64,000 bases of DNA from an uncultured Neisseria sp. (GCA_963552075.1 CAUVJL010000001.1:394-64393), one strand, 5' to 3'. Shown: positions 3,844 through 24,917, counted from the stretch's first letter. Notes: a model not told the origin generated them from the letters alone. Program-made: numbers and translations.

Positions 3844-4000
3844 ATCCTGTTCCAACAAATGCGGCGAAAAGCGTTATTATATAGCAAACGGCATGACTTT
3901 TTGACACGGTCGGACAAGCAGCCTGACACGCTGAAACATCCGTTCCCATGCCGCCGCACCCAAACCATACTTTTTCAGACGACCTCCCCCGCTTCCCGAT

Positions 4001-4201
4001 ATGATAGGCAGACTTTTCCGTATTTTTTTCTTTTTCGCACTTGCCGCGCTGATTATCAACCGCCTCTTCAGCCGCAAGCAAAAACGCGCCCTGCGCGATG
4101 TCGCCAAAATCAGCGCATGGGTGCTGCTCGGTGCAGCCGCAGCGACGCTGTTTTGGTATCTGGTCATGCTGTATTTCAAACACATTCCGGATTCTTATTG
4201 A
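4001..4201 (+). CDS. small hypothetical membrane protein (66 aa)
   Basis: Two hydrophobic segments (FFFFALAALIINRLF; WVLLGAAAATLFWYLVMLYF). A DUS-pair terminator follows. No family recognised. Confidence 0.35.
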   Translation: MIGRLFRIFFFFALAALIINRLFSRKQKRALRDVAKISAWVLLGAAAATLFWYLVMLYFKHIPDSY

Positions 4202-4226
4202 CCAAGGTTTGATAACTAAACAAATA

Positions 4227-4272
4227 AAAGGTCGTCTGAAAACGCAAATTCAGGTTTTCAGACGACCTTTTC
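4227..4272. terminator. DUS-pair hairpin terminator
   Basis: AGGTCGTCTGAA at 4229-4240 and TTCAGACGACCT at 4257-4268. This is the last host-dialect DUS before position 12014. Confidence 0.7.
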
Positions 4273-4325
4273 CCGTATATTAAAAACACGGGGGATGACG
4301 ACATTGCCAAAGCGGCTGTCTCAGC

Positions 4326-4970
4326 TCAACGTTTAAAATTCGACTTCTCCTTAAATTCCGTTCCGACAAACGTCCGTTTCGGATTGCCGCGCTCCACCTG
4401 ATAAAGCTGGCTGTGCTGTGCGCGGGCGTAATCGTCGGTCTGTCCGGCATGATGTTCCGCCAGCTTTTGCGCCAGCAGGGTCAAAGCCAATTTTTTGTTG
4501 GCATGCTGACTGCGTTCGCTTTCGACCCGTACGGAAATACCGCTTGCCTTATGAGTGGCACGGACGGCACTTTCAGTTTTATTGACGTGCTGCCCGCCTT
4601 TGCCGCCCGAACGGCAGGCTTGAAACTCAATTTCGCTTCCAGACGGCATTTCAGGCATATCGGGCATGCGGAAAACGCCGATATACCAGTTTTTGCGCGG
4701 ATGTTTCGGACGGACGGTGCTGGCGCACACCCATTGGAGCGAACCTTGCCAACGCCGTGCCAGAGTTTCGGCATGCTTGCCGTCCAATTTAAGCACCGCC
4801 GACATAATGCCGTGCTTATCGGCGGTTTCGGAGATGATTTCCACCCCGACACCTTCCGCCTTCGCCTCGGCAAGCAGCCTGCCCAATACGAAACGGGCAA
4901 AGATGCGGCATTCGGCAGGCCCTTGAGCGGTGGAAATTTGCAGATAAATTGTTCGCATATTTTGCTTCAT
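4326..4970 (-). CDS. prfH: peptide chain release factor H (PrfH)
   Basis: RF-like protein with GGQ motif (SGGKGGQHVNKTESAV). Start chosen at MKQNMRTIYLQ, with GGAG 7 nt upstream. Lies directly downstream of the rtcB-family ORF. Confidence 0.8.
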   Translation of the reverse strand: MKQNMRTIYLQISTAQGPAECRIFARFVLGRLLAEAKAEGVGVEIISETADKHGIMSAVLKLDGKHAETLARRWQGSLQWVCASTVRPKHPRKNWYIGVFRMPDMPEMPSGSEIEFQACRSGGKGGQHVNKTESAVRATHKASGISVRVESERSQHANKKLALTLLAQKLAEHHAGQTDDYARAQHSQLYQVERGNPKRTFVGTEFKEKSNFKR

Positions 4971-4972
4971 AT

Positions 4973-5737
4973 TTATTCTCCACATCCGCCGCTGGTTTTG
5001 TAAGTCAAAACGGGTTTGAAGCGGGCGACCAATTCAATCAAACCGGCGTTTTTCATGGCTGAAATGACGCTGTCTATGCTTTTATAAGCCTGGGGAGCTT
5101 CTTCAAAAATCAGAGTCTTATCCTGACAAACGACCACACTGCCGAATGCGGTTTGGCGTAAGCTGTCGGCGGAATATTTGTGCGACAGCCTGCCTTTGCA
5201 TTCGCCGCGTTGCCACTTCCGTCCTGCGCCGTGTGCCAATGTATTCAGCGAAATTTGGCAATCTTGGTTCGGCAGAACCAGATAGCTGTAATCGCCGCGC
5301 GAGCCGGGTATCATCACCAGACCTTTATCGGCGGGCGTTGCGCCTTTTCGGTGCAGCCAGCCGGTTTGTCCCGCGATTTCGGTTTGTTCGAGGAAATTGT
5401 GATGCACGTCGAGCAGGCATTCGCCTTCCGTGCGCCAGCGGTCGAGCATTCTGGCGGCAATCAGACGGCGGTTTAAACGGGCGAACTCAAGGGCTGCCTG
5501 ATGTTCGGCAAGATAGTCCGCCGCAGCCACGCTGCCTTCCGCCAAACCTCGATGGCCGTAGGCTTCGATGTGGCGTTGCAAAATCTGCTGACCCAGTCCG
5601 CGCGAACCGCTGTGTACCAACAATTGCAAACGGTTTGAATCAAAGGCAGCGGGAAGCAAATCGTCGCGGTAAACGGTTTCAACGGTTTGCAATCGCGATG
5701 CCGTCAACCGCGCCCTTGCCGCGCGGGACAACGACAT
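4973..5737 (-). pseudogene. rtcB: RtcB-family RNA ligase, 5'-truncated remnant
   Basis: The ORF starts only about 40 codons before the HSGSRGLG motif. It keeps the C-terminal AHGAGRKW region but lacks roughly the first third, including the GGGNHF-type motif that normally precedes HSGSRG. Confidence 0.65.
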
Positions 5738-5912
5738 GCTGGTGCATTACGAACGGCTGGGGGAAGCCGCCGCGCTCTCCGTGCCGTCGCCCGAACACTA
5801 CCTGCCGCTGCTCTACACCGCCGCGCTGCGCGAACCGCAGGACGATATGGAAATATTCAATGACGAACTCGCCTTTGGCTCAATCAGCATGACTTCCGTT
5901 TTGATAGGGTAA
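5673..5912 (+). pseudogene. C-terminal fragment of a YgiD-type 4,5-DOPA dioxygenase extradiol
   Basis: Frame 0 reads ...ARDNDMLVHYERLGEAAALSVPSPEHYLPLLYTAALREPQDDMEIFNDELAFGSISMTSVLIG*. This matches only the last 60-75 residues of the YgiD family, and no N-terminal part is present. Confidence 0.5.
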
Positions 5913-5930
5913 GAGACCATGACAAAATAA

Positions 5931-6134
5931 CGCGGGTCGGAACCCCTACGCGCCTGCCCAAAAGCCCGCTACGAAGACGGCTTGGACACGGCAAAATTGG
6001 ACGTGTTGGCCGACGTATTGCGACAAATCGGCTGCACGCAGGCAGCAGAAATTCTGACCGAACCCGCCGCCGAAGCGCAAGCCAAGCAGCGCATTGCCGA
6101 AGGCACAGATTGCTTCGGACAGTTTGGGCACTAA
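5931..6134 (+). pseudogene. fragment of a DsbA/HCCA-isomerase-like thioredoxin-fold protein
   Basis: Reads ...ARYEDGLDTAKLDVLADVLRQIGCTQAAEILTEPAAEAQAKQRIAEGTDCFGQFGH*. This resembles the internal to C-terminal part of DsbA/FrnE/HCCA isomerase proteins. It has no start codon and stops prematurely. Confidence 0.35.
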
Positions 6135-6213
6135 CCGCCATTGTGCTGATGGTTTCCAGCAACCGATCCGCCGAAGGAAAAGGACTAGGGCGAAAGCAGT
6201 ATCGCCCAAACGC

Positions 6214-6255
6214 AAAAGCAGCCTGCACTTTGAAATTGAAGTGCAGGCTGCTTTT
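6214..6255. terminator. hairpin built from AAGCAGCCTGCA (king3-type DUS) pair
   Basis: AAGCAGCCTGCA at 6216-6227 and its reverse complement at 6242-6253, loop CTTTGAAATTGAAG, flanked by A and T runs. Sits immediately after the LysR stop. Confidence 0.7.
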
Positions 6256-7122
6256 TCATATTGCCGACAAGTGTTCCAATGCCTCCGCGAAGTAATCCGC
6301 CACCGCCCTGACGCTGGGGCTACGGCGTACGTCTTCGTGCATCACCAGAAAGAGTTCTGCTGCGAATTCAGGTAGCGGGGCATCTGGATTGAGTGAGACG
6401 GGATGCAGCCTGTCGGCAGGGAAAACAGCGAAATCAGGCAGAATACCGATGCCGATTTGTTCGCACACGGCTTGTTTGACAGCGGCGAAGTCGTTGCTGG
6501 CGAAGGAAATGTCGGCATCTTCGCCGATTTGTTCGGCAAACCAGCGGGAAAAACGGGTGTTTACGGCAATTTGTACAAAACGCCAGTTTTCGCGGCGGAT
6601 GGTTTTCAGGTAGCCTTCATGGCCGTAGATGCGGTAGGAGAAATGGGCGATACGGCGCACGGCAAGGTCGTTTTGGGTGGGACGGACGAGGCGCAGAGCG
6701 ATGTCGGCTTGGCGACCGTGCAGGTCGGCGAGTGCGGCATCGCTTTGAATAATAAGGCGTATATCGTTGTGTTTGCGGTAGAAATCGGCAATGTGGGGCA
6801 TCAGCAGGAGTCGGGCGACGAATGGCGGTGCGGAAATGACGACGCTGTGCCGCAGCTCGGCCTGTTCGCGCGCGGTACGCTGCAACATGCTCATATCTTT
6901 GCAGATTTCGCAGGCATGGCGGTAAAGCCGTTCGCCTTCGGGGGTGAGCAGGTAGCGTTTGCCGATGCGGTCAAACAGGCGCAGGCCGAGTGCGTTTTCC
7001 AGCTGGGCGATTTGCCGCGAAACGGTGCTGTGCTGCACGTCTAGGTGTTCGGCAGCGGCGGTAAGGGTTTGTTTTTCCACAAGGGTGGTGAAGTGGCGGA
7101 TGCCGTTCCAGTCCCAATCCAT
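6256..7122 (-). CDS. LysR family transcriptional regulator
   Basis: N-terminal HTH (IRHFTTLVEKQTLTAAAEHLDVQHSTVSRQIAQLE) plus a LysR substrate domain. Start chosen at MDWDWNG (7122) within ORF 6256..7161. Confidence 0.85.
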   Translation of the reverse strand: MDWDWNGIRHFTTLVEKQTLTAAAEHLDVQHSTVSRQIAQLENALGLRLFDRIGKRYLLTPEGERLYRHACEICKDMSMLQRTAREQAELRHSVVISAPPFVARLLLMPHIADFYRKHNDIRLIIQSDAALADLHGRQADIALRLVRPTQNDLAVRRIAHFSYRIYGHEGYLKTIRRENWRFVQIAVNTRFSRWFAEQIGEDADISFASNDFAAVKQAVCEQIGIGILPDFAVFPADRLHPVSLNPDAPLPEFAAELFLVMHEDVRRSPSVRAVADYFAEALEHLSAI

Positions 7123-7181
7123 TATTGCTTCCTTTGTGCATTTTTTGGCTGTGTTTGCCAATTTATCTTATTTTCGTGTTT

Positions 7182-7196
7182 TTATAAACGGTATAA
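7182..7196. promoter_or_regulatory. candidate LysR box (T-N11-A palindrome)
   Basis: TTATAAACGGTATAA in the divergent LysR/DUF2798 intergenic region. Confidence 0.25.
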
Positions 7197-7229
7197 ACTG
7201 CACGATATGGATTTTTTGAGGGGAGCGAG

Positions 7230-7460
7230 ATGAAAAAATTGCCGAAAAAATACGCGGGCGTACTGTTTTCTTTTTACGCTTCGACGGTGATGGTGCTGAT
7301 TGTGAGCGCGGTGCTGGTGGCGCTGAATACCGATATCGACGCGGGCTACCTGCAGCGCTTGTTGAAATCATATTTGATTACTTGGCCGGTGGCATTCGCC
7401 AGCCTGCTCGGCGTGCGGCCGTTGGTGGTGAAATGGGTGGCGGCTTCGGTGGCGGATTGA
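7230..7460 (+). CDS. DUF2798 domain-containing small membrane protein
   Basis: 76 aa, two TM segments. The sequence pattern (KKYAGVLFSFYASTVMVLIVS...ITWPVAF) is typical of DUF2798. Divergent from LysR. Confidence 0.65.
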   Translation: MKKLPKKYAGVLFSFYASTVMVLIVSAVLVALNTDIDAGYLQRLLKSYLITWPVAFASLLGVRPLVVKWVAASVAD

Positions 7461-7471
7461 GGCTACCTGAA
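7460..7471 (+). repeat. AGGCTACCTGAA (eik-type DUS dialect)
   Basis: Exact 12-mer overlapping the DUF2798 stop codon. Confidence 0.6.
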
Positions 7472-7510
7472 AACATGAATAAAGCAGTGACAACCCTAAT
7501 TGCATCAAAG

Positions 7511-7522
7511 TGCAGGCTGCTT
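7511..7522 (-). repeat. AAGCAGCCTGCA (king3-type DUS), single copy
   Basis: TGCAGGCTGCTT on the + strand. Confidence 0.6.
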
Positions 7523-7652
7523 TCAGTTTCACAAAAGCTCCGCTTTTCATAGACAAACTAATATTGTTTTTAAATTTCAGACGGCTGAATACAGCCAAAA
7601 GCTCCTCTGAAAACCAGCCTTTATTTACCAACCTTGCAGACAGGAGACACAC

Positions 7653-8333
7653 ATGTCCGACAAACCCATTCTCTACGTTGTAACCAGCAATGCCGTTAAA
7701 GGTGCAAGCGGCCAGCCCACCGGCTTTTGGTTGTCCGAACTCACGCACCCCATGCACGAAACCGAAGCCGCCGGGCACCGAAGCGAAATCGCCACCATCC
7801 GAGCCGGAGTCGCCCCCGTTGATGCCGACAGCCTGAATATGGATGACCCCGTGAACGCCCATTACTGGCAGCAAACTGACCTGCAACAACGTTTGCAAGC
7901 TGCGCCCGGGCTGGGCGGTCTGAACGGCGCGGACTATTCCGCCATTCTGTTTACCGGCGGCTACGGTACGATGTGGGATTTCCGCGAAAGCCTTGACGCG
8001 CAACGCCTTATCCGCGAAGTGTACGAAAACGGCGGTATCGTTGCCGCCGTCTGCCACGGCCCTGCCGCGCTGGTGGACGCGAAACTTTCTAATGGCGAAT
8101 ATCTGGTCAGCGGCAAAAACGTTGCCGCTTTCACCAACGCCGAAGAAGAAGCAACGGGCGGAGCTAAAATCGTCCCCTTCCTGCTGGAAACCGCGCTCGT
8201 TGAACACGGCGCAAAACACCATGCCGCGCCGAACTGGGCGGAAAACGTGGTGGTGGACGGCCGTCTGATTACCGGTCAAAATCCGGCATCCGCCAAAGGC
8301 GTAGGGGTGGCGTTGGCAAAGGCATTGGGTTGA
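7653..8333 (+). CDS. DJ-1/PfpI family type 1 glutamine amidotransferase-like protein
   Basis: 226 aa. Has the AAVCHGPAAL nucleophile-elbow cysteine motif typical of DJ-1/PfpI/HchA-like proteins. Confidence 0.85.
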   Translation: MSDKPILYVVTSNAVKGASGQPTGFWLSELTHPMHETEAAGHRSEIATIRAGVAPVDADSLNMDDPVNAHYWQQTDLQQRLQAAPGLGGLNGADYSAILFTGGYGTMWDFRESLDAQRLIREVYENGGIVAAVCHGPAALVDAKLSNGEYLVSGKNVAAFTNAEEEATGGAKIVPFLLETALVEHGAKHHAAPNWAENVVVDGRLITGQNPASAKGVGVALAKALG

Positions 8334-8342
8334 TGAAGTGAA

Positions 8343-8385
8343 AAAAGCAGCCTGCACTTTGGAAATTGAAGTGCAGGCTGCTTTT
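8343..8385. terminator. hairpin built from AAGCAGCCTGCA pair (bidirectional)
   Basis: 12-mers at 8345-8356 and 8372-8383. Nearly identical to the 6214-6255 element, including the loop. Lies between the convergent DJ-1 and MarR genes. Confidence 0.7.
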
Positions 8386-8417
8386 TATTGTGCCGACTTT
8401 ATGTTTTCAGACGGCCT

Positions 8418-8915
8418 TCACGTTTCCAAAGCCCCCAACCACGCCGCCAATCCTTGTTCGAGTTGCGTGCGGGTGTCCGCATCCAGCTTTTCCAGCAGCC
8501 GCTTTTCGTTTTCCACATGCGGGAACACGGCTTTTTCAATCAATTCTTCACCTTTATCTGTCAGGCGGACCAGCAGGCTGCGGGCATCGTCCGGGTTGGG
8601 CAGGCGGTCGATTAAGCCTTGGTTTTCCAGATTTTTCAGGCGCGTGGTCATGGTGCCGGACGTTACCATCAGCGATGAGAACAACTCGGTCGGGGTCAGC
8701 GTATAAGGCGCGCCGCTGCGGCGCAGGGTGGCAAGCACGTCGAACGAGCCTTCGGTTAAACCGTATTCTCCGTAAACTTTTTCCAATTCGCGCGCGATGA
8801 CGGCAGCGGCGCGTTTCAGACGGCCGATTAACAGCATATTTTCGGCGGCCAATTCAGGCAGCTCCTGCTTCCATTGGGCAACGGCGTGGGCGGCTGCATC
8901 AAGGTGTTCGGTCAT
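8418..8915 (-). CDS. MarR family transcriptional regulator
   Basis: 165 aa with a winged-HTH region (SFDVLATLRRSGAPYTLTPTELFSSLMVTSGTMTTRLKNLENQGLI). Confidence 0.85.
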   Translation of the reverse strand: MTEHLDAAAHAVAQWKQELPELAAENMLLIGRLKRAAAVIARELEKVYGEYGLTEGSFDVLATLRRSGAPYTLTPTELFSSLMVTSGTMTTRLKNLENQGLIDRLPNPDDARSLLVRLTDKGEELIEKAVFPHVENEKRLLEKLDADTRTQLEQGLAAWLGALET

Positions 8916-8952
8916 AGAATGCTCCGTTCGGTTTAAATGGCGATTATTTTAT

Positions 8953-8997
8953 CTTGACCTCAAGCTAATCTCCATTTATATTTAACTTGAATTCAAG
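8953..8997. promoter_or_regulatory. two CTTGA-NN-TCAAG palindromes (candidate MarR operators)
   Basis: CTTGACCTCAAG at 8953-8964 and CTTGAATTCAAG at 8986-8997, 33 bp apart, in the MarR/nitroreductase divergent promoter region. Confidence 0.45.
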
Positions 8998-9018
8998 ATA
9001 ATTTTGCTGGAGAAAACC

Positions 9019-9684
9019 ATGTTTGCCGATAAGCAAGCCGTTTTAAACGCCTTCCGTTTCCGCCACGCCTGCAAAAGTTATGACGCGGCGAAGAAAATCC
9101 CTGCCGATGATTTCGCCTATATTCTGGAAACCGCACGCCTGTCACCCAGCTCGTTCGGGCTGGAACCTTGGCGGTTTTTGGTGGTGCAGAACCGTACTCT
9201 GCGCCAAGAGTTGCGCGGCATTGCATGGGGCGCGGCGGAAAAAATCATGGATTGCAGCCATTTTGTGATTTTGTTGGCGCGCACGCAGGCTGCCATGCAG
9301 GCGGATTATGAAGAAAAAATCTGGGGCGGCGTGCATGGAATGCCGTCTGAAACCGTTGGAATGATGCAAAAATTTTTCAAACAGTTTGCCGAAACCGATT
9401 TTGCCATTGCCGATAATCCGCGCTCGTTTAACGACTGGGCAGCCAAGCAAACCTATATCGCGTTGGCAAACATGATGACTGCTGCCGCTTTGATTGGTGT
9501 GGATTCCAAGCCGATTGAGGGCTTTCAAAAGGAAAATGTGGAAAAGTTGCTGTCCGGCAAAGGCTTCATCAATCTTGACGAATACCGCGTCAGCGTCATG
9601 GCGGCGTTTGGCTATCGCGCAGGTGAACCCAAGCGCGCCAAAACGCGGCAGGCAGTAGAAGATGTGGTTGATTGGATTGAATAA
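9019..9684 (+). CDS. NAD(P)H-dependent nitroreductase family oxidoreductase
   Basis: Nitroreductase-fold signature (RHACKSYD...LETARLSPSSFGLEPWRF). Start chosen at MFADKQ, with GGAG upstream. Confidence 0.85.
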   Translation: MFADKQAVLNAFRFRHACKSYDAAKKIPADDFAYILETARLSPSSFGLEPWRFLVVQNRTLRQELRGIAWGAAEKIMDCSHFVILLARTQAAMQADYEEKIWGGVHGMPSETVGMMQKFFKQFAETDFAIADNPRSFNDWAAKQTYIALANMMTAAALIGVDSKPIEGFQKENVEKLLSGKGFINLDEYRVSVMAAFGYRAGEPKRAKTRQAVEDVVDWIE

Positions 9685-9825
9685 ACGCCTGAAAATCAGC
9701 AACACAGACATTCACCAGTTGGCAAAATCAAGAGTTTTTACCGATGACAGCCTGCGCTTGAATGAAGAAGAAGGTTTCCGTCGGGGCAAATTTTCCACCC
9801 GCTTATTCATTTATTTGGAGGACTT

Positions 9826-10290
9826 ATGCGCTTACACTATTCCCAATATGCCCTTGAAAGCTATAAGGCACTGCTGGCTTTGGAAGCCAGCCTCACGCTG
9901 GATAGTACCCTGAAAGATTTGGTGAAACTGCGTGTTTCGCAAATCAACGGCTGCGTTTTTTGTGTCGATATGCACGTTAAAGAGGCCAAGCTGCACGGCG
10001 AGCGCGAACTGCGCCTGCACCATTTGGCCGTTTGGCACGAATCAACCCTGTTTACCGAAAAAGAACGGGCCGCGCTGCAATGGGCGGAAAGCCTGACCCG
10101 CATCTCCGAACAAGGTATCCGCGATGCGGACTACGCAGCGGTACGCGCCCATTTTGATGAAGAAGAACTGGTGGCGTTGACCCACGTCATCAACACCATC
10201 AACGTTTGGAACCGCCTGAACGTGGCTTTTGCCACCCCGGCAGGCAGCATGGACGGTCTGATGGGATTGGAGAAGGCAGGGCTGGTTTAG
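9826..10290 (+). CDS. carboxymuconolactone decarboxylase (AhpD-like) family protein
   Basis: 154 aa. CxxC-type motif NGCVFCVDMH typical of AhpD-like/CMD proteins. GGAGG RBS. Confidence 0.85.
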   Translation: MRLHYSQYALESYKALLALEASLTLDSTLKDLVKLRVSQINGCVFCVDMHVKEAKLHGERELRLHHLAVWHESTLFTEKERAALQWAESLTRISEQGIRDADYAAVRAHFDEEELVALTHVINTINVWNRLNVAFATPAGSMDGLMGLEKAGLV

Positions 10291-10316
10291 CCTGGCCTAC
10301 AAGCCGAACGTGCAAA

Positions 10317-10361
10317 AAAAGCAGCCTGCACTTTGCAAAACCCAAGTGCAGGCTGCCTGAA
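10317..10361. terminator. hairpin from AAGCAGCCTGCA / TGCAGGCTGC, the second arm reading through as AGGCTGCCTGAA
   Basis: 12-mer at 10319-10330. The inverted arm at 10347-10356 runs into AGGCTGCCTGAA (10350-10361, sim-type dialect). Lies between the convergent CMD and SnoaL-like genes. Confidence 0.65.
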
Positions 10362-10378
10362 ACCCATCGGGCTTCGCT

Positions 10379-10741
10379 TTATGCGGCGTTGTTGTTCATC
10401 GTCCAGCAGTCGGTGATTTTGCCGTCTTTGACTTTCAGGAAATCTGTGCCGACTTTGACGGCGGTTTTGTCGCCGAGCGTGGCGGTAACGCGCCAATAGG
10501 CGGAAATCATGTCGCCGTCGCAAAACGGGCCGAGCACGAGTTCGTAATGCAAATCGGCTTTGGCGCGGATGGTGGCAATCCAAGCCTTCGCGCTGGCAAT
10601 GTCGGTAACGGGTGCGGGCGGCGGGGTGGAGTCGGCGGTCAGGTGCGCTTTGAAATGGGGCGACAACAATTCGTCGGCAATATCAAGATGGCCGTTCCAC
10701 ATCTGCGTCCATGCGGTGTAGATTTTGTGTGCGTCGGTCAT
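10379..10741 (-). CDS. SnoaL-like / NTF2-fold protein
   Basis: 120 aa with the size and pattern (IYTAWTQMWNG...DCWTM) of SnoaL-like ester cyclase/NTF2 proteins. Confidence 0.55.
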   Translation of the reverse strand: MTDAHKIYTAWTQMWNGHLDIADELLSPHFKAHLTADSTPPPAPVTDIASAKAWIATIRAKADLHYELVLGPFCDGDMISAYWRVTATLGDKTAVKVGTDFLKVKDGKITDCWTMNNNAA

Positions 10742-10851
10742 GTTTTATCTCCTAATGTATTGGATTACAATGAATATCGCTGCCTGGCGGCTGTGCCATA
10801 ATGCGGTGAAACGAAGCTGCCGTCAAGGCGGGGCGGCGAAGCAATAAGGCT

Positions 10852-10920
10852 TTCAGACGGCCTTCGGACAGATATTCAGGCCGTCTGAAAGGCTACCTGA
10901 AACTTTAAAAGCAGCCTGCA
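10852..10920. repeat. stack of three DUS dialects
   Basis: TTCAGACGGCCT at 10852-10863 and AGGCCGTCTGAA at 10878-10889 form a hairpin. AGGCTACCTGAA follows directly at 10890-10901, and AAGCAGCCTGCA at 10909-10920. Confidence 0.7.
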
Positions 10921-10943
10921 CCCAAAATCGCAGTAAACCCCAA

Positions 10944-10985
10944 AAGCCCTCTCCCCAGCCCTCCCCCACAGGGGAGGGAGCAGGT
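10944..10985. repeat. GC-rich REP-like palindromic element
   Basis: CCCTCCCC-CACA-GGGGAGGG hairpin at 10959-10978. It translates as the ...SPVGEGWGEG... pseudo-peptide that is common for such intergenic repeats. Confidence 0.4.
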
Positions 10986-11109
10986 TGGTACAGCCCCACC
11001 GTCTGCCGCACAAAACCCAAGTGCAGGCTGCCATCGGTCTGATTTTTTGATTCAGCCAACCGATGTGCGTGCCTGCGATGCTGCCTTTGCCCCATCACAC
11101 ATCCTGTTT

Positions 11110-11135
11110 TTCAGACGGCCTTCAGGCTACCTGAA
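11110..11135. repeat. TTCAGACGGCCT followed by AGGCTACCTGAA
   Basis: 12-mers at 11110-11121 and 11124-11135, just upstream of the EamA start. Confidence 0.6.
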
Positions 11136-11163
11136 AAACGCCACACACAAAAGAAAAACCGCC

Positions 11164-12024
11164 ATGCCCAACCGCACCGCTGCCATTTTCACCACCGCGA
11201 TTGCCCCGCTGATTTGGGGCAGCACCTATCTGGTTACCACCGAATTTCTGCCGCCGGACCGACCGTTTACCGCCGCGCTTATCCGTGTTTTACCCGCCGG
11301 GCTTTTGCTGTTGGCGTGGACGCGGCGGATACCTAAACGCAGCGAATGGCCGACGGTTGTTTTGCTCGGTTTTTTAAACATCGGCTTTTTCCAGGCCATG
11401 CTGTTTGTGGCGGCGTATCGCTTACCGGGCGGACTGGCGGCGGTATTGAGTTCGACGCAGACGCTGATGGTGCTGGTGTTCACTTGGTTAATCGGCAAAA
11501 CCATGCCGCCCAAAGCGGCTTGGGCTTGGTCGGCGGCAGGGGTTTTGGGGATTGCGCTTTTGGTTTTGTCGCCGCAGGCGCGCTATGACGGGACGGGTAT
11601 TTTGGCGGCATTGGCGGGCGCGGCGGCGATGGCATTAGGCGTGTATTTGTCGAAACACCGCCGCACTTCGCTGCCCGTGTTGGCGTTTACCGGCTGGCAG
11701 CTTTTCATCGGCGGATTGTTTTTACTGCCCGTCGCCCTGCTTGCCGAGCCGCCGCTCGAATCTTTAAGCCCCGCCAATATCGGCGGCTATCTGTATTTGA
11801 GCCTGTTTGGTGCCGTATTGGCTTATGTGTTGTTTTTCAGAGGAATTGCTAAACTTTCACCTGCTGCGGTTTCGTCGCTGGGATTGCTCAGCCCTGTCTC
11901 GGCATTTATCTTGGGCTGGCTGTTTTTAGGGCAAGGGATGGATGCGAAGTCGCTGGCGGGATTTGCGTTGGTGTTGGTATCGATATTCGGGGTGCAGCGG
12001 GCAGTCATGAAAAAGGTCGTCTGA
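11164..12024 (+). CDS. EamA/DMT family transporter
   Basis: About 10 TM segments with two EamA-like halves. Start chosen at MPNRTAAIF (11164) within ORF 11047..12024. The stop codon lies inside a host-type DUS. Confidence 0.85.
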   Translation: MPNRTAAIFTTAIAPLIWGSTYLVTTEFLPPDRPFTAALIRVLPAGLLLLAWTRRIPKRSEWPTVVLLGFLNIGFFQAMLFVAAYRLPGGLAAVLSSTQTLMVLVFTWLIGKTMPPKAAWAWSAAGVLGIALLVLSPQARYDGTGILAALAGAAAMALGVYLSKHRRTSLPVLAFTGWQLFIGGLFLLPVALLAEPPLESLSPANIGGYLYLSLFGAVLAYVLFFRGIAKLSPAAVSSLGLLSPVSAFILGWLFLGQGMDAKSLAGFALVLVSIFGVQRAVMKKVV

Positions 12025-12068
12025 AAACAGCCTTGAAGCCTTCAAGCTGCGTTTTCAGACGACCTTTT
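12012..12068. terminator. DUS-pair hairpin terminator (bidirectional)
   Basis: AGGTCGTCTGAA at 12014-12025 and TTCAGACGACCT at 12054-12065. Confidence 0.7.
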
Positions 12069-12080
12069 GCGCCGGTCGGT

Positions 12081-12896
12081 TTATTTCTTCAAGAATGCCC
12101 GTTTCAGAATAATCAGCCAATCTTTTTTATCCAAAACAGGACGTTGCGTAAATACATCGTATTTGCAGCCGTCCAGTTTCTGCAAAATCAGTTGTCCGCC
12201 GACAATAATCATCCGCAATTCAAATCCCAAGCGGCCTTTCAGCGTTTTACCCAAGGGCGAGCCGCCCTTGAGCATTTGGAACGCGCGGTTGCACTCATAC
12301 GCCATCAGTCTTTGGAACGCAAAATCCGCTTTGCCTTCGGCAATTTGCGTTTCGCTGACGTTAAATTTTTGCAAGTCGTCCTGCGGGATATAGACGCGGC
12401 CTTTCTGCCAATCGACGGCAACGTCCTGCCAAAAGTTGATGAGTTGCAACGCGGTGCAGATACCGTCGCTTTGGGCAATGCTGACTTCGTCGGTTTGTCC
12501 GTACAGATGCAGCATAATGCGCCCGACTGGATTGGCGGAACGGCGGCAGTAGTCAATCAGGTCGCCAAAATCCTGATAACGGGTTTTGACAACATCCTGA
12601 CTGAATACGGACAAAAGATCGTAAAACGGCTGCAGCGGCAGCTTGAAAGGCGCGATGGCTTCACGTTGCAAACGTTGCATTAGCGGAGTCAACGGCGTTT
12701 CGCCACGCTGTATGCGGTCGAGTTCGGATTTGAGTTCATCCAAAGCGCGCAAGCGTTCATCGGCTTCGGCATTGCCTTCATCAGCGAGGTCATCCGCAGT
12801 GCGCGTAAAAGCGTAAACGGCATGAGTAGGTTTGCGCAGGCGGCGCGGCATGACAAGCGAGCCGACGGGGAAATTTTCGTAATGGTTGACGGACAT
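12081..12896 (-). CDS. squalene/phytoene synthase family protein (HpnC-like)
   Basis: MSVNHYENFPVGS...AVYAFTRTADDLADEG is the characteristic HpnC/CrtB N-terminus with the first Asp-rich motif. Start chosen at 12896 within ORF 12081..13016. Confidence 0.8.
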   Translation of the reverse strand: MSVNHYENFPVGSLVMPRRLRKPTHAVYAFTRTADDLADEGNAEADERLRALDELKSELDRIQRGETPLTPLMQRLQREAIAPFKLPLQPFYDLLSVFSQDVVKTRYQDFGDLIDYCRRSANPVGRIMLHLYGQTDEVSIAQSDGICTALQLINFWQDVAVDWQKGRVYIPQDDLQKFNVSETQIAEGKADFAFQRLMAYECNRAFQMLKGGSPLGKTLKGRLGFELRMIIVGGQLILQKLDGCKYDVFTQRPVLDKKDWLIILKRAFLKK

Positions 12897-13069: not shown

Positions 13070-13226
13070 TATAGTGGATTAAATTTAAATTAGGACAAGG
13101 CGACGAAGCCGCAGACAGTACAGATAGTACGGAACCGATTCACTTGGTGCTTCAGCACCTTAGAGAATCGTTCTCTTTGAGCTAAGGCGAGGCAACGCCG
13201 TACTGGTTTAAAGTTAATCCACTATA
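13070..13226. mobile_element. Correia repeat-enclosed element, full length (157 bp)
   Basis: TATAGTGGATTAAATTTAAAT...TTTAAAGTTAATCCACTATA terminal inverted repeats with the canonical Correia core. Confidence 0.9.
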
Positions 13227-13445
13227 AAACCACAAAATTACCCTGTTTTCCCAATTCAGACGACCCTTTCCACACAACGGATTTTAGCTACGGCAAAAAC
13301 TATATTGAGATAACAAACCGCCATCCGGAAATAGGCTGTCCCATCCAAACTTGTCCCGAAACCCATGCCGTCCTCGTTCTTTAATATATCCGTAAACACT
13401 TGATTCGCTTATAATCCCCATACTTCCAAGTCAGCGGAGACTACG

Positions 13446-20535: not shown

Positions 20536-20580
20536 AAAGGTCGTCTGAAAACCCTAATTAGGGATTTTCAGACGACCTTT
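20536..20580. terminator. DUS-pair hairpin terminator (bidirectional)
   Basis: AGGTCGTCTGAA at 20538-20549 and TTCAGACGACCT at 20567-20578. Confidence 0.7.
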
Positions 20581-20607
20581 GTCTTTACCGGTTGACCTGT
20601 TCGGATA

Positions 20608-22809
20608 TTAGAAATCCAATTCCGCTTTCAGCCAATAAGTACGCGGCATGCCGACGACGGCGAAGCTGCGATCGTATTGGCCGCGCTGTACCTGCCAGTA
20701 GTTTTTGTTGAACAGATTTTCCACCGAACTGCTGACGGTCAGGGTATTTTTACCCAGCTTGGTTTTGTAGCGCGCGCCTACGTCAACCAAGGTATAGGAC
20801 GGCAGTTTATATTGGCGTTCAGTATCTTGGAAAGACTTACCGTAGTATTGGATATTGCTTTTCAAAGTCAGACCTTCAACAAATGGCGTATCCCATTCGA
20901 TACCTGCTTTGGCAATAACACGCGGGCTAGCAACCTGATTACCATTTGTTAAAGTATTATTGTAACGCGGATAATCCTTCAACTGAGCTTTCAGATACAT
21001 AATGCCAAAGCTCGGACGAAGGGTTTTATTCATCAGGTTGGCATACGTATTAAACTCAACACCACGGTTGATTTCTTTACCATGCTGCTCTTGCGTGTTG
21101 CGCCAATAACCCGGACGGACGATTTGGAAAGCGTTCAGGCTGGTTACAACATCACCCCAGTTTTTTCGTACACCCATTTCAATCTGTTTGCTGACACGAG
21201 GTTTGGACATTTCTCCAGTATCCTCGTTAGTCGCACCCGGTTCCAAATCTTGCATATAGTTTCCATACACTACCATACCAGTATTAGGCACCCAAGCCGC
21301 TGCAAACATCGGGCTGAACCGTTTTTTGCTGAACTTCACAGTAGAAGAGCGGCGGTTTGCATCAGTTTTTGCATTGCCTGTCAAATTTGGATGAGCAGTT
21401 TGTTTTACCCATTGATAACGTCCGCCCAAGGTTAAACGGATAGTATTATCCGCGAAACCCAAAGTATCGGATATTGCAAGGCTGGGAGTCTCATAAGTCG
21501 TATGCTCTGTGCCTTGTATATTGGCAGGATTGTTGCGGTGGGTAACAGGGAAAACAGGGTTGTAGATGTTGGTATCCAAGGCATCGCCGTTGCGCGTTCC
21601 CTGATCGTGGTCGCGGTGTCGTTTAATATAATCGAATGAGGTAGCCCAATTGTGAACAACCGGACCGGTTTCAAATTCACCACGCGCTTTCAAATTACCG
21701 CTTGTTGTGCGTGAAAGGAATTCAAACGGTTGTGCGGCCTGCGCCGTGTAATTACCTAAATTACCGCCTTTTGCACGGTTTTTCATGAGCAGTTGTGTAA
21801 ACGAACCTTTATACACAGACTCCATATAACCTAAACCACCACTAATCTGCATATTGTAGTCAGTATCGTATTCGAAAGTCAGTGCATTCGTCATGGTCTT
21901 AGTAGTTTGCTCCTGCCAAGACGGGACAAGCAGGGTTTTGCCGCTCGGTGCAGCAGGCATGGCAAAGTTAAGATCCTGCATTTCATGAATACGCGCACGA
22001 CCTCCCTCTGTATTACGGTGGTTATACATCGAATCGAAAGACAGACGTAATTTCTCACCACGATAATCAGTATTTAATGCAAATTCCTGATTATCTTCCT
22101 TATAACCTTTACGGGCGGTTTCACCTTTGCGGTATTTACCATTGAAACGGATGCCAAACTGTTTGTTTTCACCAAAACGCTGACCGATATCGATTGCGCC
22201 TTCGGTACGATTTTTACTGAAAACCGCTAAACCGATTTTTCGGTTGCCTTCATCGGATGCTTTTTTGGTTTCGATGTTGACAGAAGAACCTGCTGCACCT
22301 TCAGGGTCCATACCGACAGTGGAACTTGAAGCACCTTTAATCAACTGTGCAGAAGAAACGCCGGCAGTCGGGGTGTGGTAATAAGAATAAAGACCTGCCA
22401 AGCCATTGATACTAAACTGGCGGGCATCAAGTTGCAAACCACGGACATAGACGCCTTGAATGGTGTTGCTTTCACCGCCGAACTGCATGGTAGAGGCATC
22501 GTTCTTGGCGATTGTATCGACTAATGTACGGGATGCGTTGTTTTCCAATACTTTTTCATCGTAATTGACAACCGTAATCGGCGCTGTGAAAGCATTGGCT
22601 TTACCAAGTAGTCCCAAGTTCACGCGGTCGCGCAAGTCTCCGTCGCTGGCAATGGAGTAAGAACGGGCGGCCTTGACGCGTTTGGCATCGGCGCGGACAT
22701 GGACTTCCTGCAACTGCTGTTGCACGGGGGCTTCGGGTGTCGCTTCATCGGCGGCATAAGAAAACGCGCTCATAATCAAAAGCGGCATCAGGGCTAATTT
22801 GCTGTTCAT
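20608..22809 (-). CDS. TonB-dependent siderophore-type outer membrane receptor
   Basis: Signal peptide MNSKLALMPLLIMSAFSYA, plug and 22-strand barrel patterns, and a terminal ...YWLKAELDF aromatic residue. Start chosen at 22809 (AGGAA RBS). Confidence 0.9.
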   Translation of the reverse strand: MNSKLALMPLLIMSAFSYAADEATPEAPVQQQLQEVHVRADAKRVKAARSYSIASDGDLRDRVNLGLLGKANAFTAPITVVNYDEKVLENNASRTLVDTIAKNDASTMQFGGESNTIQGVYVRGLQLDARQFSINGLAGLYSYYHTPTAGVSSAQLIKGASSSTVGMDPEGAAGSSVNIETKKASDEGNRKIGLAVFSKNRTEGAIDIGQRFGENKQFGIRFNGKYRKGETARKGYKEDNQEFALNTDYRGEKLRLSFDSMYNHRNTEGGRARIHEMQDLNFAMPAAPSGKTLLVPSWQEQTTKTMTNALTFEYDTDYNMQISGGLGYMESVYKGSFTQLLMKNRAKGGNLGNYTAQAAQPFEFLSRTTSGNLKARGEFETGPVVHNWATSFDYIKRHRDHDQGTRNGDALDTNIYNPVFPVTHRNNPANIQGTEHTTYETPSLAISDTLGFADNTIRLTLGGRYQWVKQTAHPNLTGNAKTDANRRSSTVKFSKKRFSPMFAAAWVPNTGMVVYGNYMQDLEPGATNEDTGEMSKPRVSKQIEMGVRKNWGDVVTSLNAFQIVRPGYWRNTQEQHGKEINRGVEFNTYANLMNKTLRPSFGIMYLKAQLKDYPRYNNTLTNGNQVASPRVIAKAGIEWDTPFVEGLTLKSNIQYYGKSFQDTERQYKLPSYTLVDVGARYKTKLGKNTLTVSSSVENLFNKNYWQVQRGQYDRSFAVVGMPRTYWLKAELDF

Positions 22810-22883
22810 AGATTCCTTCTGTCTCTGAGGTGGGTTATTTTTATTGCAATAAACGTTAAAAATCACAAAGTAATTTTGCTGCG

Positions 22884-22939
22884 GAATTATATTTGATAAC
22901 ATTCTGCTTTTCTATAAAAAGTGATGATAACCATTTGTA
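22884..22939. promoter_or_regulatory. AT-rich divergent promoter region with Fur-box-like sequences
   Basis: GTGATGATAACCATTTGT (about 12/19 to GATAATGATAATCATTATC) and TTTGATAACATT. Manual match only. Confidence 0.3.
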
Positions 22940-23059
22940 AAAACAAAAATACAACATAAATCAAAACTTTTTCCATAGTAATTATAAATTATTTTATTAA
23001 GCAGAGAATCCGGGTTTCAGACGACCCCTGCCCGCTGCCTGCCTCAAGAGACAACGCAC

Positions 23060-24829: not shown

Positions 24830-24842
24830 ATTTGAAGCGACG

Positions 24843-24917
24843 AGGTCGTCTGAAAACCCGTAAGGGTTTCGCCAGAACGAGCGTAGCGAGTTTCGCTAAA
24901 ACTTTTTCAGACGACCT
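24843..24917. terminator. DUS pair enclosing nested hairpins
   Basis: AGGTCGTCTGAA at 24843-24854 and TTCAGACGACCT at 24906-24917, with the internal hairpin TAGCGA-GTT-TCGCTA. Confidence 0.6.

Follow-up and report, generated by a model that had tools for sequence, protein, structure and literature searches.

Several described processes and elements resemble the locus reported here. Homology-facilitated illegitimate recombination during natural transformation has been described in Acinetobacter and Streptococcus pneumoniae. The minimal mobile elements of Saunders and Snyder are reportedly cassettes located between conserved flanking genes and exchanged by transformation and homologous recombination. 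The term minimal mobile element is in use in the literature (PMC3082526, PMC1538595). Hughes-Games et al. (2020, PMC7371117) have spotted islands by a gap in the primary uptake signal (DUS) combined with enrichment of anomalous dialects. In the folP region of N. subflava ATCC 19243, mucDUS are found inside an AG-DUS host (Frye et al. 2013, PMC3630211), and the dialect names used here agree with the same work.

The window analysed is a stretch of 64,000 nucleotides from an uncultured oral Neisseria, in which a tract of about 5.5 kb (5693 to ~11230) is probably a patchwork of cassettes from a Kingella-type locus that has retained the donor uptake signals. The original prediction held that the host dialect was absent from this segment and present in more than 40 copies elsewhere. 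An exact count on both strands gave 58 copies of the host-dialect AG-mucDUS AGGTCGTCTGAA, with none from 4269 to 12013. The 7757-bp gap separates the copies at 4257(-) and 12014(+), and its borders are the host-dialect hairpins at 4229-4268 (fold -27.1 kcal/mol) and 12014-12065. No gap in the window is longer: it has 1.8 times the length of the runner-up, and the latter, of 4.3 kb, corresponds to the span of two long ORFs. Under uniform placement within this window only, a gap of this length has a chance probability of P = 0.03 if the 58 sites are independent and of 0.17 if they are treated as 42 clusters, and taken alone it is only marginally unusual. What carries the evidential weight is the set of foreign 12-mers together with the homology, not the gap.

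The king3DUS AAGCAGCCTGCA occurs seven times in the window, always within 6216-10920 (6216+, 6242-, 7511-, 8345+, 8372-, 10319+ and 10909+), and the eikDUS AGGCTACCTGAA four times (6605-, 7460+, 10890+ and 11124+). The copies first reported for these two dialects were all recovered, those at 10909 and 6605 having been overlooked, and the single simDUS AGGCTGCCTGAA at 10350, the single AT-DUS ATGCCGTCTGAA at 9340 and an imperfect king3 copy at 11022 were found as described. The AG-DUS AGGCCGTCTGAA is present in eight copies, four in the segment (8406-, 10852-, 10878+ and 11110-) and four dispersed across the other 56 kb. All king3, eik, sim and AT 12-mers of the window, together with half of the AG copies, are thus confined to the host-DUS gap, between 6216 and 11135, which is the over-representation of anomalous dialects used by Hughes-Games et al. 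(2020). In dinucleotide-shuffled sequence the expected number of king3 and eik 12-mers is 0, and other mucDUS loci contain 0-1 king3DUS per 20 kb.

To the left of the tract lies prfH (release factor H; 4326-4985, minus strand; NCBIfam TIGR03072, 234 bits), a native, DUS-free gene that is 92-98% identical to its counterparts in mucDUS relatives. It is followed by a native rtcB (4973-5692, minus strand) that lacks about 140 N-terminal codons (positions 160-425 of 426 of the Pfam RtcB profile), whereas the gene is intact in relatives; its homology to four related loci ends at 5692-5693. The truncated form was present in 20 of 20 contigs read with the same PrfH allele and sufficient reach. The tract begins with the 3' end (73 codons) of a gene for a LigB-type extradiol dioxygenase (5694-5912, plus strand), colinear with intact 257-aa LigB (PF02900) genes in the loci L006 and L031 and in K. 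denitrificans, although the fragment searched alone gave no Pfam match. The junction at 5692/5693 cuts inside both genes, leaving both truncated, with a microhomology of 0-2 nt, and is an illegitimate join. An unannotated remnant spacer follows (5925-6213, plus strand), which is common to K. denitrificans and to Neisseria copies of the island (98-100% identity to K. denitrificans L036 and to L006) and has no credible Pfam match. The same arrangement is found at 99.3-100% identity in at least nine independently assembled metagenome contigs; it is real and no assembly artefact.

The next unit is delimited by two king3DUS hairpins, one acting as predicted terminator of a LysR gene (6214-6255) and the other of a DJ-1 gene (8343-8385), which have folding energies of -30.5 and -31.2 kcal/mol (z about -7) and, as had been noticed, are near-identical 42-bp elements, one inserted G apart. 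The first is the left edge of the cassette in several hosts (the match begins at 6214 for N. sp. GT4A_CT1 and at 6218 for K. pumchi), and the second is its right edge in every context, homology stopping at 8384-8390 in five of the compared loci. Between them are encoded a LysR-family regulator (6256-7122, minus strand; Pfam HTH_1 and LysR_substrate) with an internal eik-type 12-mer (6605-6616), a DUF2798 membrane protein (7230-7460, plus strand; Pfam) whose stop codon overlaps a second one (7460-7471) and whose gene is followed 3' by a single king3DUS (7511-7522), and a DJ-1/PfpI protein (7653-8333, plus strand; Pfam) of the Hsp31/YDR533c (glyoxalase III) type. The NCBIfam HchA match of the latter is weak; its structure matches are PDB 4p5p (1.8e-48), YDR533c (9e-26) and glyoxalase III (4lru), and the exact protein is present in 433 collection blocks.

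The proposal that DNA crossed a genus boundary is supported by the identities of this region, which reach 97-98% in anomalous-dialect genomes; host-dialect relatives do not have this DNA at the site. Positions 5694-8339 are 98.1% identical to K. denitrificans ATCC 33394, 6168-8384 are 97.3% identical to the chromosome of another oral, king3DUS Kingella, and 6282-8384 are 98.3% identical to Eikenella halliae. In the king3DUS chromosomes, which contain 29-32 king3DUS per 20 kb, the cassette is flanked by DUF2339 and a YadA gene, close to dnaN/dnaA. The E. halliae copy keeps the king3DUS hairpins, which suggests that Eikenella is also a recipient. Whatever the host genus, the eik-type 12-mer at 6605 is unchanged in 12 of the 13 other aligned copies and that at 7460 in all 13, and in a tree of the cassette the Neisseria, Kingella and Eikenella copies are intermixed at 97-99.8% identity, a pattern indicating that it has moved between genera repeatedly. 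The left part has its nearest copy (L006, 97.7-98.7%) in a mucDUS Neisseria, so the final transfer may have taken place between two Neisseria.

The central module has a different standing. It comprises an AG-DUS (8406-8417, minus strand) abutting the stop codon of a MarR-family regulator (8418-8915, minus strand; Pfam), an NAD(P)H nitro/flavin reductase (9019-9684, plus strand; Pfam; PDB 7jh4, 1e-65) with the AT-DUS inside its gene, and a CMD/AhpD-like protein with a CxxC motif (9826-10290, plus strand; Pfam CMD; TIGR00778; PDB 2gmy, PA0269). The whole module (8403-10296) is syntenic at the same site in at least nine mucDUS Neisseria, with 91-94% identity, and the site of its AG-DUS is a mucDUS in most native Neisseria copies; these three genes were therefore rejected as foreign cargo. 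Seven redox-related families had been read as one coherent island: LysR, DUF2798, DJ-1/PfpI, MarR, nitroreductase, CMD/AhpD-like and SnoaL-like. Pfam recovered every family, but with the module syntenic in native Neisseria the single island is not supported. Against K. denitrificans ATCC 33394 the identity is 94.8% over 8342-9722 and 95.8% over 9724-10926, and in 9500-10296 the window resembles native Neisseria alleles more closely than Kingella; acquisition of the left tract and the SnoaL tract in two separate events would therefore be as likely as in one. Decayed king3-like hairpins on both sides of the module in native relatives point to an older history of exchange at the locus, leaving the direction of transfer of the module uncertain.

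Further right, a third hairpin (10319-10361), the predicted terminator of the SnoaL unit, has one king3DUS arm and one king/king3 hybrid arm that reads as simDUS on the plus strand. It is followed by a gene for a SnoaL-like (NTF2-fold) protein (10379-10741, minus strand; Pfam SnoaL_2), the exact protein being found in 955 blocks and in many contexts. This unit of about 440 bp (10317-10756) is 97-98% identical in hosts of four dialect groups, most copies keeping the sim-type 12-mer at 10350. An AG-DUS hairpin, an eik-type 12-mer and a king3DUS then form a cluster (10852-10920) that is identical in K. denitrificans (L036, 15945-16013). Between the king3DUS at 10909 and its imperfect partner at 11022 extends an intergenic repeat (10921-11090) that matches repeats in Kingella loci and is contiguous only in the Kingella MAG L033 and in L061, L066 and L068. 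It precedes an imperfect hairpin (11110-11135), one arm of which is an AG-DUS and the other an eik-type 12-mer; this site is mucDUS in native relatives. The right end falls in the EamA transporter gene (11164-12024, plus strand; Pfam). Over 11150-11249 the 50-bp identity profile gives 98% then 94% to L033, against 71% then 90% to native alleles, and from 11250 onward the window is 92-100% native-like; the profile shows a crossover by sequence similarity inside EamA, at about 11200-11250.

Comparison with relatives and composition both speak for an imported segment. Nine related loci with flanks 92-98% identical lack 5694-8384 and 10297-11086, and the boundaries could be set against four of these island-free loci and others, except for 8403-10296, which is present there; the expectation that the segment would be missing from relatives thus held for the two outer parts and failed for the module. 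The DUS-masked host-versus-Kingella Markov log-ratio was -4 to -14 over 6001-8001 and -1 to -7 over 10001-11001 (Kingella-like), compared with a mean of +28 (sd 14) outside the segment (host-like), a contrast inflated by training the host model on the window's own flanks. In the king3DUS-rich contig L066 the genes form a single colinear block, LigB-LysR-DJ-1-MarR-NTR-GST-CMD-SnoaL-EamA, differing by the extra GST gene; no DUF2798 ORF was called in that contig. In K. denitrificans ATCC 33394, three additional genes separate DJ-1 from MarR and another three precede EamA, and none of the sequences compared is the exact donor.

Among other explanations, delivery by a mobile element, either an IS-flanked composite transposon or a tmRNA-integrating island, is unlikely. 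Copies of one IS5-family transposase bracket the same gene set only in Neisseria sp. CP9, L006 and L056, where the set adjoins a tmRNA gene and a phage-type integrase, and CP9 has two extra copies elsewhere. However, no integrase, transposase, IS or tRNA/tmRNA was found at 4-12 kb of the window (its tRNAs lie only at 31.4-31.7 kb), nor any terminal repeat at the junctions, which are located inside rtcB/ligB and, as a graded crossover, inside EamA. Integrase, relaxase and type IV secretion genes of an integrative conjugative element or integrase island were absent among Pfam-searched ORFs of 4000-12300, and no transposase ORF or flanking IS of a composite transposon was seen in the window. The L006 IS interrupts the AG-DUS at 10878 and would therefore have arrived later. 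The units are not integron gene cassettes either: no integrase is present, and the hairpins, inverted DUS repeats accompanied by T-runs, are ordinary terminators.

Somewhat less probable still is that the locus is ancestral in Neisseria, with Kingella as recipient and the window keeping an old polymorphic allele. The synteny of the MarR module in many mucDUS Neisseria, the AG and AT DUS (Neisseria dialects) in K. denitrificans copies and a wider neighbourhood (EamA, MarR_2, DUF2269, HPP-TetR) that appears syntenic between genera speak for it. Against it, LysR-DUF2798-DJ-1 contains king3 and eik 12-mers only, without mucDUS, has a Kingella-like composition, lies in conserved surroundings on the chromosome of a Kingella species, and exists in 93-97% identical form in K. 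pumchi and at 68-75% in a Cardiobacteriaceae MAG; moreover, the window copy truncates an rtcB that relatives keep intact. Separate direct imports from Kingella, Eikenella and Simonsiella, each tagged by its own dialect as first proposed, are very improbable and already contradicted. All three 12-mers are present, their assignment to genera agrees with Frye et al., and the DJ-1 and SnoaL units do occur in E. halliae and in another host with eikDUS. However, Kingella copies have the eik-type 12-mers (6605 and 7460), the AG/eik/king3 cluster and the sim-type arm at the same positions, the sim 12-mer is an artefact that arises by overlap from the king-type arm, and the king3DUS hairpins in E. halliae mark it as another recipient. 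As the eik, sim, AG and AT 12-mers (except the pair at 11110-11135) share these positions, they would have arrived as one block, the dialect mix having apparently been put together before arrival.

The preferred reading is thus import from a Kingella-type locus. The host is a Neisseria of the mucosa/sicca/macacae (AG-mucDUS) group with a variable locus between prfH-rtcB and EamA, the content of which differs among relatives. About 5.5 kb (5693 to ~11230) would have been swapped for DNA of the equivalent locus in a Kingella denitrificans-like organism or, alternatively, in a Neisseria that already held such DNA. The incoming piece would have been a pre-assembled mosaic of the ligB remnant, divergent LysR and DUF2798-DJ-1, divergent MarR and nitroreductase followed by CMD, and SnoaL, each unit ending in DUS-hairpin terminators. 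Its right end was joined by sequence similarity in EamA and its left end illegitimately, with loss of the 5' parts of rtcB and ligB. A resident MarR-nitroreductase-CMD would have been partly overwritten and partly retained. From the junction anatomy and the absence of mobility genes we infer delivery by natural transformation, as in homology-facilitated illegitimate recombination. The near-cognate DUS of the fragment (four AG-DUS and one AT-DUS, one and two bases off the host DUS, respectively) may have served for its uptake, and because the tract holds these the import need not have breached the dialect barrier. The foreign DUS would be passengers, donor terminators and uptake tags not yet substituted by host-dialect copies. 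Judged from family membership only, the cargo plausibly consists of regulators and small detoxification enzymes, with reactive electrophiles, nitro/quinone compounds and peroxides as their targets.

Flagging islands by DUS dialect has already been published, and the tract belongs to a known kind. The islands of Hughes-Games et al. (PMC7371117) have exactly the same diagnostic signature, include a Kingella donor group for one element family and count a mucosa-group host among their cases; they are, however, integrative conjugative elements of 30-36 kb that have defined attachment sites and, for the most part, a single foreign dialect, whereas the present tract is 5.5 kb long, has no conjugation or integration genes, contains several dialects and would have been inserted by recombination. 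With minimal mobile elements it shares conserved flanks (metX...prfH-rtcB and EamA) and the lack of mobility genes, the locus being empty in some strains and species and occupied in others by Sel1-HPP-TetR, a defence island or the Kingella cassette; it differs in that a homologous flank was used only at the right end, the left end being illegitimate with partial deletion of rtcB, and in that the partner belongs to another genus. As in homology-facilitated illegitimate recombination, a single homologous anchor (EamA, ~90% identity) is paired with an illegitimate junction, and the recipient DNA between the two has been lost; this process, which we infer here, usually involves a microhomology of 3-10 nt rather than 0-2 nt. 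The folP segment is likewise a chromosomal stretch of a few kb whose dialect betrays an origin in another dialect group, but that exchange took place within Neisseria between dialects one base apart, whereas here the exchange would be cross-genus and the dialects differ at 5 of 12 positions. The tract is an unusually clear example of an already known kind of island.

Eight published DUS dialects were counted directly over the 64-kb window. The host dialect AGGTCGTCTGAA (AG-mucDUS) occurs 58 times in the 64 kb and not once between 4257 and 12014, and within this gap lie all seven window copies of AAGCAGCCTGCA (AA-king3DUS), all four of AGGCTACCTGAA (AG-eikDUS), the sole copies of AGGCTGCCTGAA (AG-simDUS) and ATGCCGTCTGAA (AT-DUS), and four of the eight copies of AGGCCGTCTGAA (AG-DUS). 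King3 and eik 12-mers have an expected count of zero in shuffled sequence, while the host-DUS gap taken alone (P = 0.03-0.17) is weak evidence by itself. The second largest host-DUS gap (20567-24843, 4.3 kb) spans two long ORFs (764 and 589 aa), holds no foreign dialect and probably reflects an absence of gene ends. The 12-mers listed in the original prediction were accurate except that a king3DUS at 10909 and an eikDUS at 6605 on the minus strand had been missed, and the dialect names and host assignments agree with Frye et al. 2013 (PMC3630211). The two near-identical hairpins that it described were recovered by comparison and folding as very stable structures at 6214-6255 and 8343-8385, their sequences differing by a single base; folding took the place of the terminator scan, which, with its loop limit of 8 nt, overlooked the hairpins made of DUS. 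The gene annotations proposed for the segment were likewise confirmed by profile and structure matches.

The segment is flanked on the left by metW, metX, a 66-codon ORF and prfH-rtcB, and on the right by EamA and a squalene/phytoene-synthase gene, and these flanks are 92-98% identical to mucDUS-rich loci of N. sicca VK64, Neisseria sp. GT4A_CT1, HMSC065D04, CP9 and GCA_000220865.1. The stretch that follows prfH-rtcB in the window is a hot spot whose contents differ between genomes. One fetched comparison locus, L012, carries Sel1-HPP-TetR there, while at least nine species-level genomes (loci L030, L039, L041, L042 and L044-L048) carry (Sel1)-MarR-nitroreductase-CMD followed directly by EamA. 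At this site CP020452.2 (L017, 13058-20201) has a defence-island-like block of DUF499, DUF3780, DarT, Macro and DUF1156 genes. The MarR-nitroreductase-CMD genes of the window (8403-10296) are 91-94% identical to those of the at least nine Neisseria genomes and, being present at this site in so many mucDUS species, are its usual resident. Just past the MarR stop codon the window has an AG-DUS where most native genomes have a mucDUS, a single transition that is polymorphic among Neisseria. A record labelled N. meningitidis 1273_NMEN (L046, JVVZ01000498.1) holds 13 mucDUS, one AT-DUS and the mucosa-group version of the locus, and is probably mislabelled or contaminated.

Compared with native relatives, which have the same flanks, homology ends at 5692 and restarts at about 11087, with an additional break at 10296 in those relatives that hold MarR-nitroreductase-CMD. 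The left junction is resolved to the base: rtcB, about 140 codons short at its N-terminal end, runs to 5692, and from 5694 the sequence is the final 73 codons of a gene for a LigB-type dioxygenase, a gene that is whole in other genomes. This junction, with a microhomology of at most 2 nt, is an illegitimate join that inactivates rtcB. The ligB fragment alone has no Pfam match, its identity resting on colinearity with whole LigB genes. The stretch 5946-6130, considered as a DsbA-like remnant, likewise had no Pfam match and is now left as an unannotated remnant. The right junction is a crossover within EamA sequence of about 90% identity. That the arrangement is an assembly chimera is rejected, the junctions being spanned by at least nine independent contigs; at least nine metagenome contigs are 99.3-100% identical across it, and the truncated rtcB is found in every contig read with the window's PrfH allele that extends far enough. 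The arrangement is real and clonal.

An identity map in 250-bp steps against 24 loci, with a 50-bp map at the right end, resolved the segment into a mosaic. Positions 5694-6250 match K. denitrificans ATCC 33394 at 98% identity and an island copy in Neisseria (L006) at 99-100%, and 6250-8384, encoding LysR, DUF2798 and DJ-1, is 95-100% identical to all Kingella, Eikenella and Neisseria copies. From 8403 to about 9500 the nearest sequences are the 'island' alleles, whereas from about 9500 to 10296 they are native Neisseria alleles (96-100%, versus 92-97% for K. denitrificans). The SnoaL part (10297-10926) is 98-100% identical to K. denitrificans, the stretch from 10926 to about 11230 is found in Kingella contigs only (92-98% to L033), and native EamA follows from about 11250. 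The imported DNA therefore extends from 5693 to about 11230. The single island with boundaries at 6214 and 11140 that had been proposed is thus replaced by foreign DNA that begins upstream and ends inside EamA, and the idea of a foreign cargo holds for the LysR-DUF2798-DJ-1 and SnoaL parts but not for MarR-nitroreductase-CMD, which is of resident type in at least nine relatives. Judged from the identity pattern, the import would have been either one tract with an internal resident patch or two tracts. A composition test with DUS masked agrees: by a host model partly trained on the window itself, no kilobases of the window are more Kingella-like than those of the LysR-DJ-1 and SnoaL parts; GC content is uninformative (0.39-0.63 over the window, 0.50-0.57 in the island), and the GC3 values of the genes overlap. 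An imperfect hairpin of one AG-DUS arm and one eik-type arm (11100-11140, -16.3 kcal/mol) occurs, among the fetched loci, in the window's own lineage only, its relatives holding mucDUS there.

The exact DJ-1 protein is present in 433 collection blocks. In most of the long contigs with it, LysR-DUF2798-DJ-1 is bordered by a DUF2339 gene and a YadA-type adhesin close to dnaN/dnaA, the surrounding DNA having 29-32 king3DUS per 20 kb and no Neisseria dialect, and these copies carry the king3 hairpins and both eik-type 12-mers at exactly the window positions. When one genome per species was scanned with DJ-1 and the nitroreductase as query, the carriers were K. denitrificans ATCC 33394, an uncultured Kingella species, K. 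pumchi (93-97%), Eikenella halliae (98.3%, in an eikDUS background), Neisseria sp. GT4A_CT1, Neisseria sp. CP9 (two island copies plus the native locus) and a Cardiobacteriaceae MAG (68-75%). Nearly the whole tract occurs in the same order in K. denitrificans ATCC 33394, with three additional genes between DJ-1 and MarR and three before EamA, and a king3DUS-rich metagenome contig (L066) carries LigB through EamA as a single block, plus a GST gene; the exact donor was not found among the 84 fetched loci. The cassette tree is discordant with host taxonomy, the CP9 copies falling beside a Kingella MAG (99.2%) and the window beside L006 at 98.7% and E. halliae at 98.5%, which implies several independent transfers. 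The SnoaL protein is more widespread than DJ-1 (955 blocks), and its unit, from ribosome-binding site (10756) to terminator (10317), is kept at 97-98% identity in hosts of the king3, king/sim and eik dialects, where its neighbourhoods are unrelated.

The original prediction associated each dialect with a separate donor genus, but the eik- and sim-type 12-mers sit at the same positions in Kingella copies. The eik-type 12-mer at 6605, within the LysR coding sequence, is invariant in 12 of 13 other aligned copies and that at 7460, overlapping the DUF2798 stop codon, in all 13, a conservation that holds in every host genus, with K. pumchi (both sites) and L066 (6605) as exceptions. K. denitrificans has an identical copy of the window cluster at 10852-10920, which is made up of an AG hairpin, an eik-type 12-mer and a king3DUS. 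The SnoaL terminator has the sim 12-mer (10350) as its second arm, which reads on the other strand as AGGCAGCCTGCA, a king/king3 hybrid, and is kept in most copies. This terminator (10319-10361) is a true kingDUS hairpin in king/sim hosts (L060, L062 and L063, at 9381-9413) and king3-type elsewhere, the DUS keeping a fixed position and changing to the local dialect through one or two substitutions. On such positional conservation an Eikenella origin of the eikDUS and a Simonsiella origin of the simDUS are rejected, and it follows that the dialect mix pre-existed in the donor locus and was imported as a block. Earlier passages through other dialect groups may still be recorded in the mix, but not imports into the window host. 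A 2025 bioRxiv DUS survey contains nothing on mixed dialects in K. denitrificans.

The hairpins may also act as seams. Two 42-bp hairpin copies (L038, 8563-8604 and 10696-10735), the left of resident type and the right of donor type, bracket the LysR-DUF2798-DJ-1 cassette of Neisseria sp. GT4A_CT1, which occupies the exact spot of one decayed king3-type hairpin lying between rtcB and Sel1/MarR in five native loci (L012 at 12964, L041 at 7481, L042 at 9339, L045 at 2846 and L047 at 7551); the single hairpin resembles a solo footprint or else an anchor for recombination. Where K. denitrificans has the order DJ-1-hairpin-[AlkB-AraC]-hairpin-[SDR]-hairpin-MarR, the window has DJ-1-hairpin-MarR, its hairpin being followed by the sequence that lies downstream of the last one in K. 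denitrificans, so that the two differ by a hairpin-to-hairpin deletion. The SnoaL unit spans exactly ribosome-binding site to hairpin in four dialect backgrounds, the DUS at the same terminator position being re-spelled into the local dialect, and multi-dialect clusters (AG, eik and king3) are located at unit edges. In the native CMD-EamA spacer (L042, about 11300-11370; also L030, L038 and L044) a decayed eik-like GGGCTACCTAAA precedes a decayed king3-like hairpin; the layout is that of window 10890-11033 and points to an exchange at the locus that is much older. No more than about 30 bp separates most homology breakpoints from a DUS, in an uncontrolled comparison where both are intergenic. 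A pool of very small gene units common to at least four dialect groups of oral Neisseriaceae (muc, king3, king/sim and eik), gained and lost at DUS-hairpin terminators, is a rather unlikely generalization of these data. Repeats of another kind also occur in these loci: a Correia-type repeat of about 157 bp lies at 13070-13229 (TATAGTGGATTAAATTTAAA ... TTAATCCACTATA), with copies at other positions in Neisseria loci L016, L022, L044 and L048, and in K. denitrificans ATCC 33394 (L036, about 10690-10795) a Correia-like element with TAGTGGATTAAA / TTTAATCCACTATA ends is inserted after the stop codon of DJ-1 and before the hairpin that serves as its terminator.

Neisseriaceae are known for competence, and the tract would have entered by natural transformation with one homologous anchor. 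Neither integrase, transposase, tRNA nor terminal repeat was found in 4-12 kb of the window. Integron-like cassettes were dismissed, an integrase being absent and the hairpins being DUS terminators. In Neisseria sp. CP9, L006 and L056 these genes lie between IS5 copies, next to a tmRNA gene and an integrase; a mobile element may have helped their spread within Neisseria, but it did not make the window junctions. The native locus coexists with one or two extra island copies in single genomes (L031, L034 and L039 of Neisseria sp. CP9; L012 and L056, both on contig GL985621.1), the extra copies being IS5-flanked and adjoining a tmRNA gene or CRISPR-associated genes, so that the gene set moves within Neisseria genomes as well. 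As for the DNA uptake barrier, AG, AT and muc forms partially cross-function in N. meningitidis, in contrast to the king and eik forms (PMC3630211 Table 1; PMC3868556). Import despite the dialect barrier is not demonstrated, because the tract holds four AG-DUS and one AT-DUS and the uptake data come from N. meningitidis and not from mucDUS hosts.

DUS dialects are thought to restrict exchange between Neisseriaceae genera; nevertheless, kilobase-sized pieces with genes of predicted function pass among Kingella, Eikenella and Neisseria of the human mouth, in a movement that is both recent (97-100% identity) and repeated (cassette tree versus host taxonomy). With both recipient junctions known to the base or to about 50 bp, and the donor arrangement known, the fragment, which combines non-cognate (king3, eik) and near-cognate (AG, AT) DUS, is a practical template for a cross-genus uptake experiment in the little-studied mucDUS group, and a natural series for the decay of imported DUS or their conversion to the host dialect. 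If the hairpins were portable recombination sites and the multi-dialect clusters multi-genus uptake tags, this would be a transformation-based cassette exchange partly bypassing the dialect barrier, and wider interest would rise if that reading proved general.

Hughes-Games et al. 2020 found islands through primary-DUS gaps and enrichment of anomalous dialects, among them conjugative elements of Kingella origin in pathogenic Neisseria and, in N. mucosa, an element with a foreign dialect (PMC7371117), and Frye et al. described a mucDUS-bearing folP segment inside an AG-DUS host (PMC3630211). The window tract fits this published category of foreign-dialect islands and resembles a neisserial minimal mobile element site; it is, however, a small tract with no mobility genes, and one of its ends is illegitimate. 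It is no new kind of element, and the diagnostic idea is already published, but it is a clean and well-resolved example.
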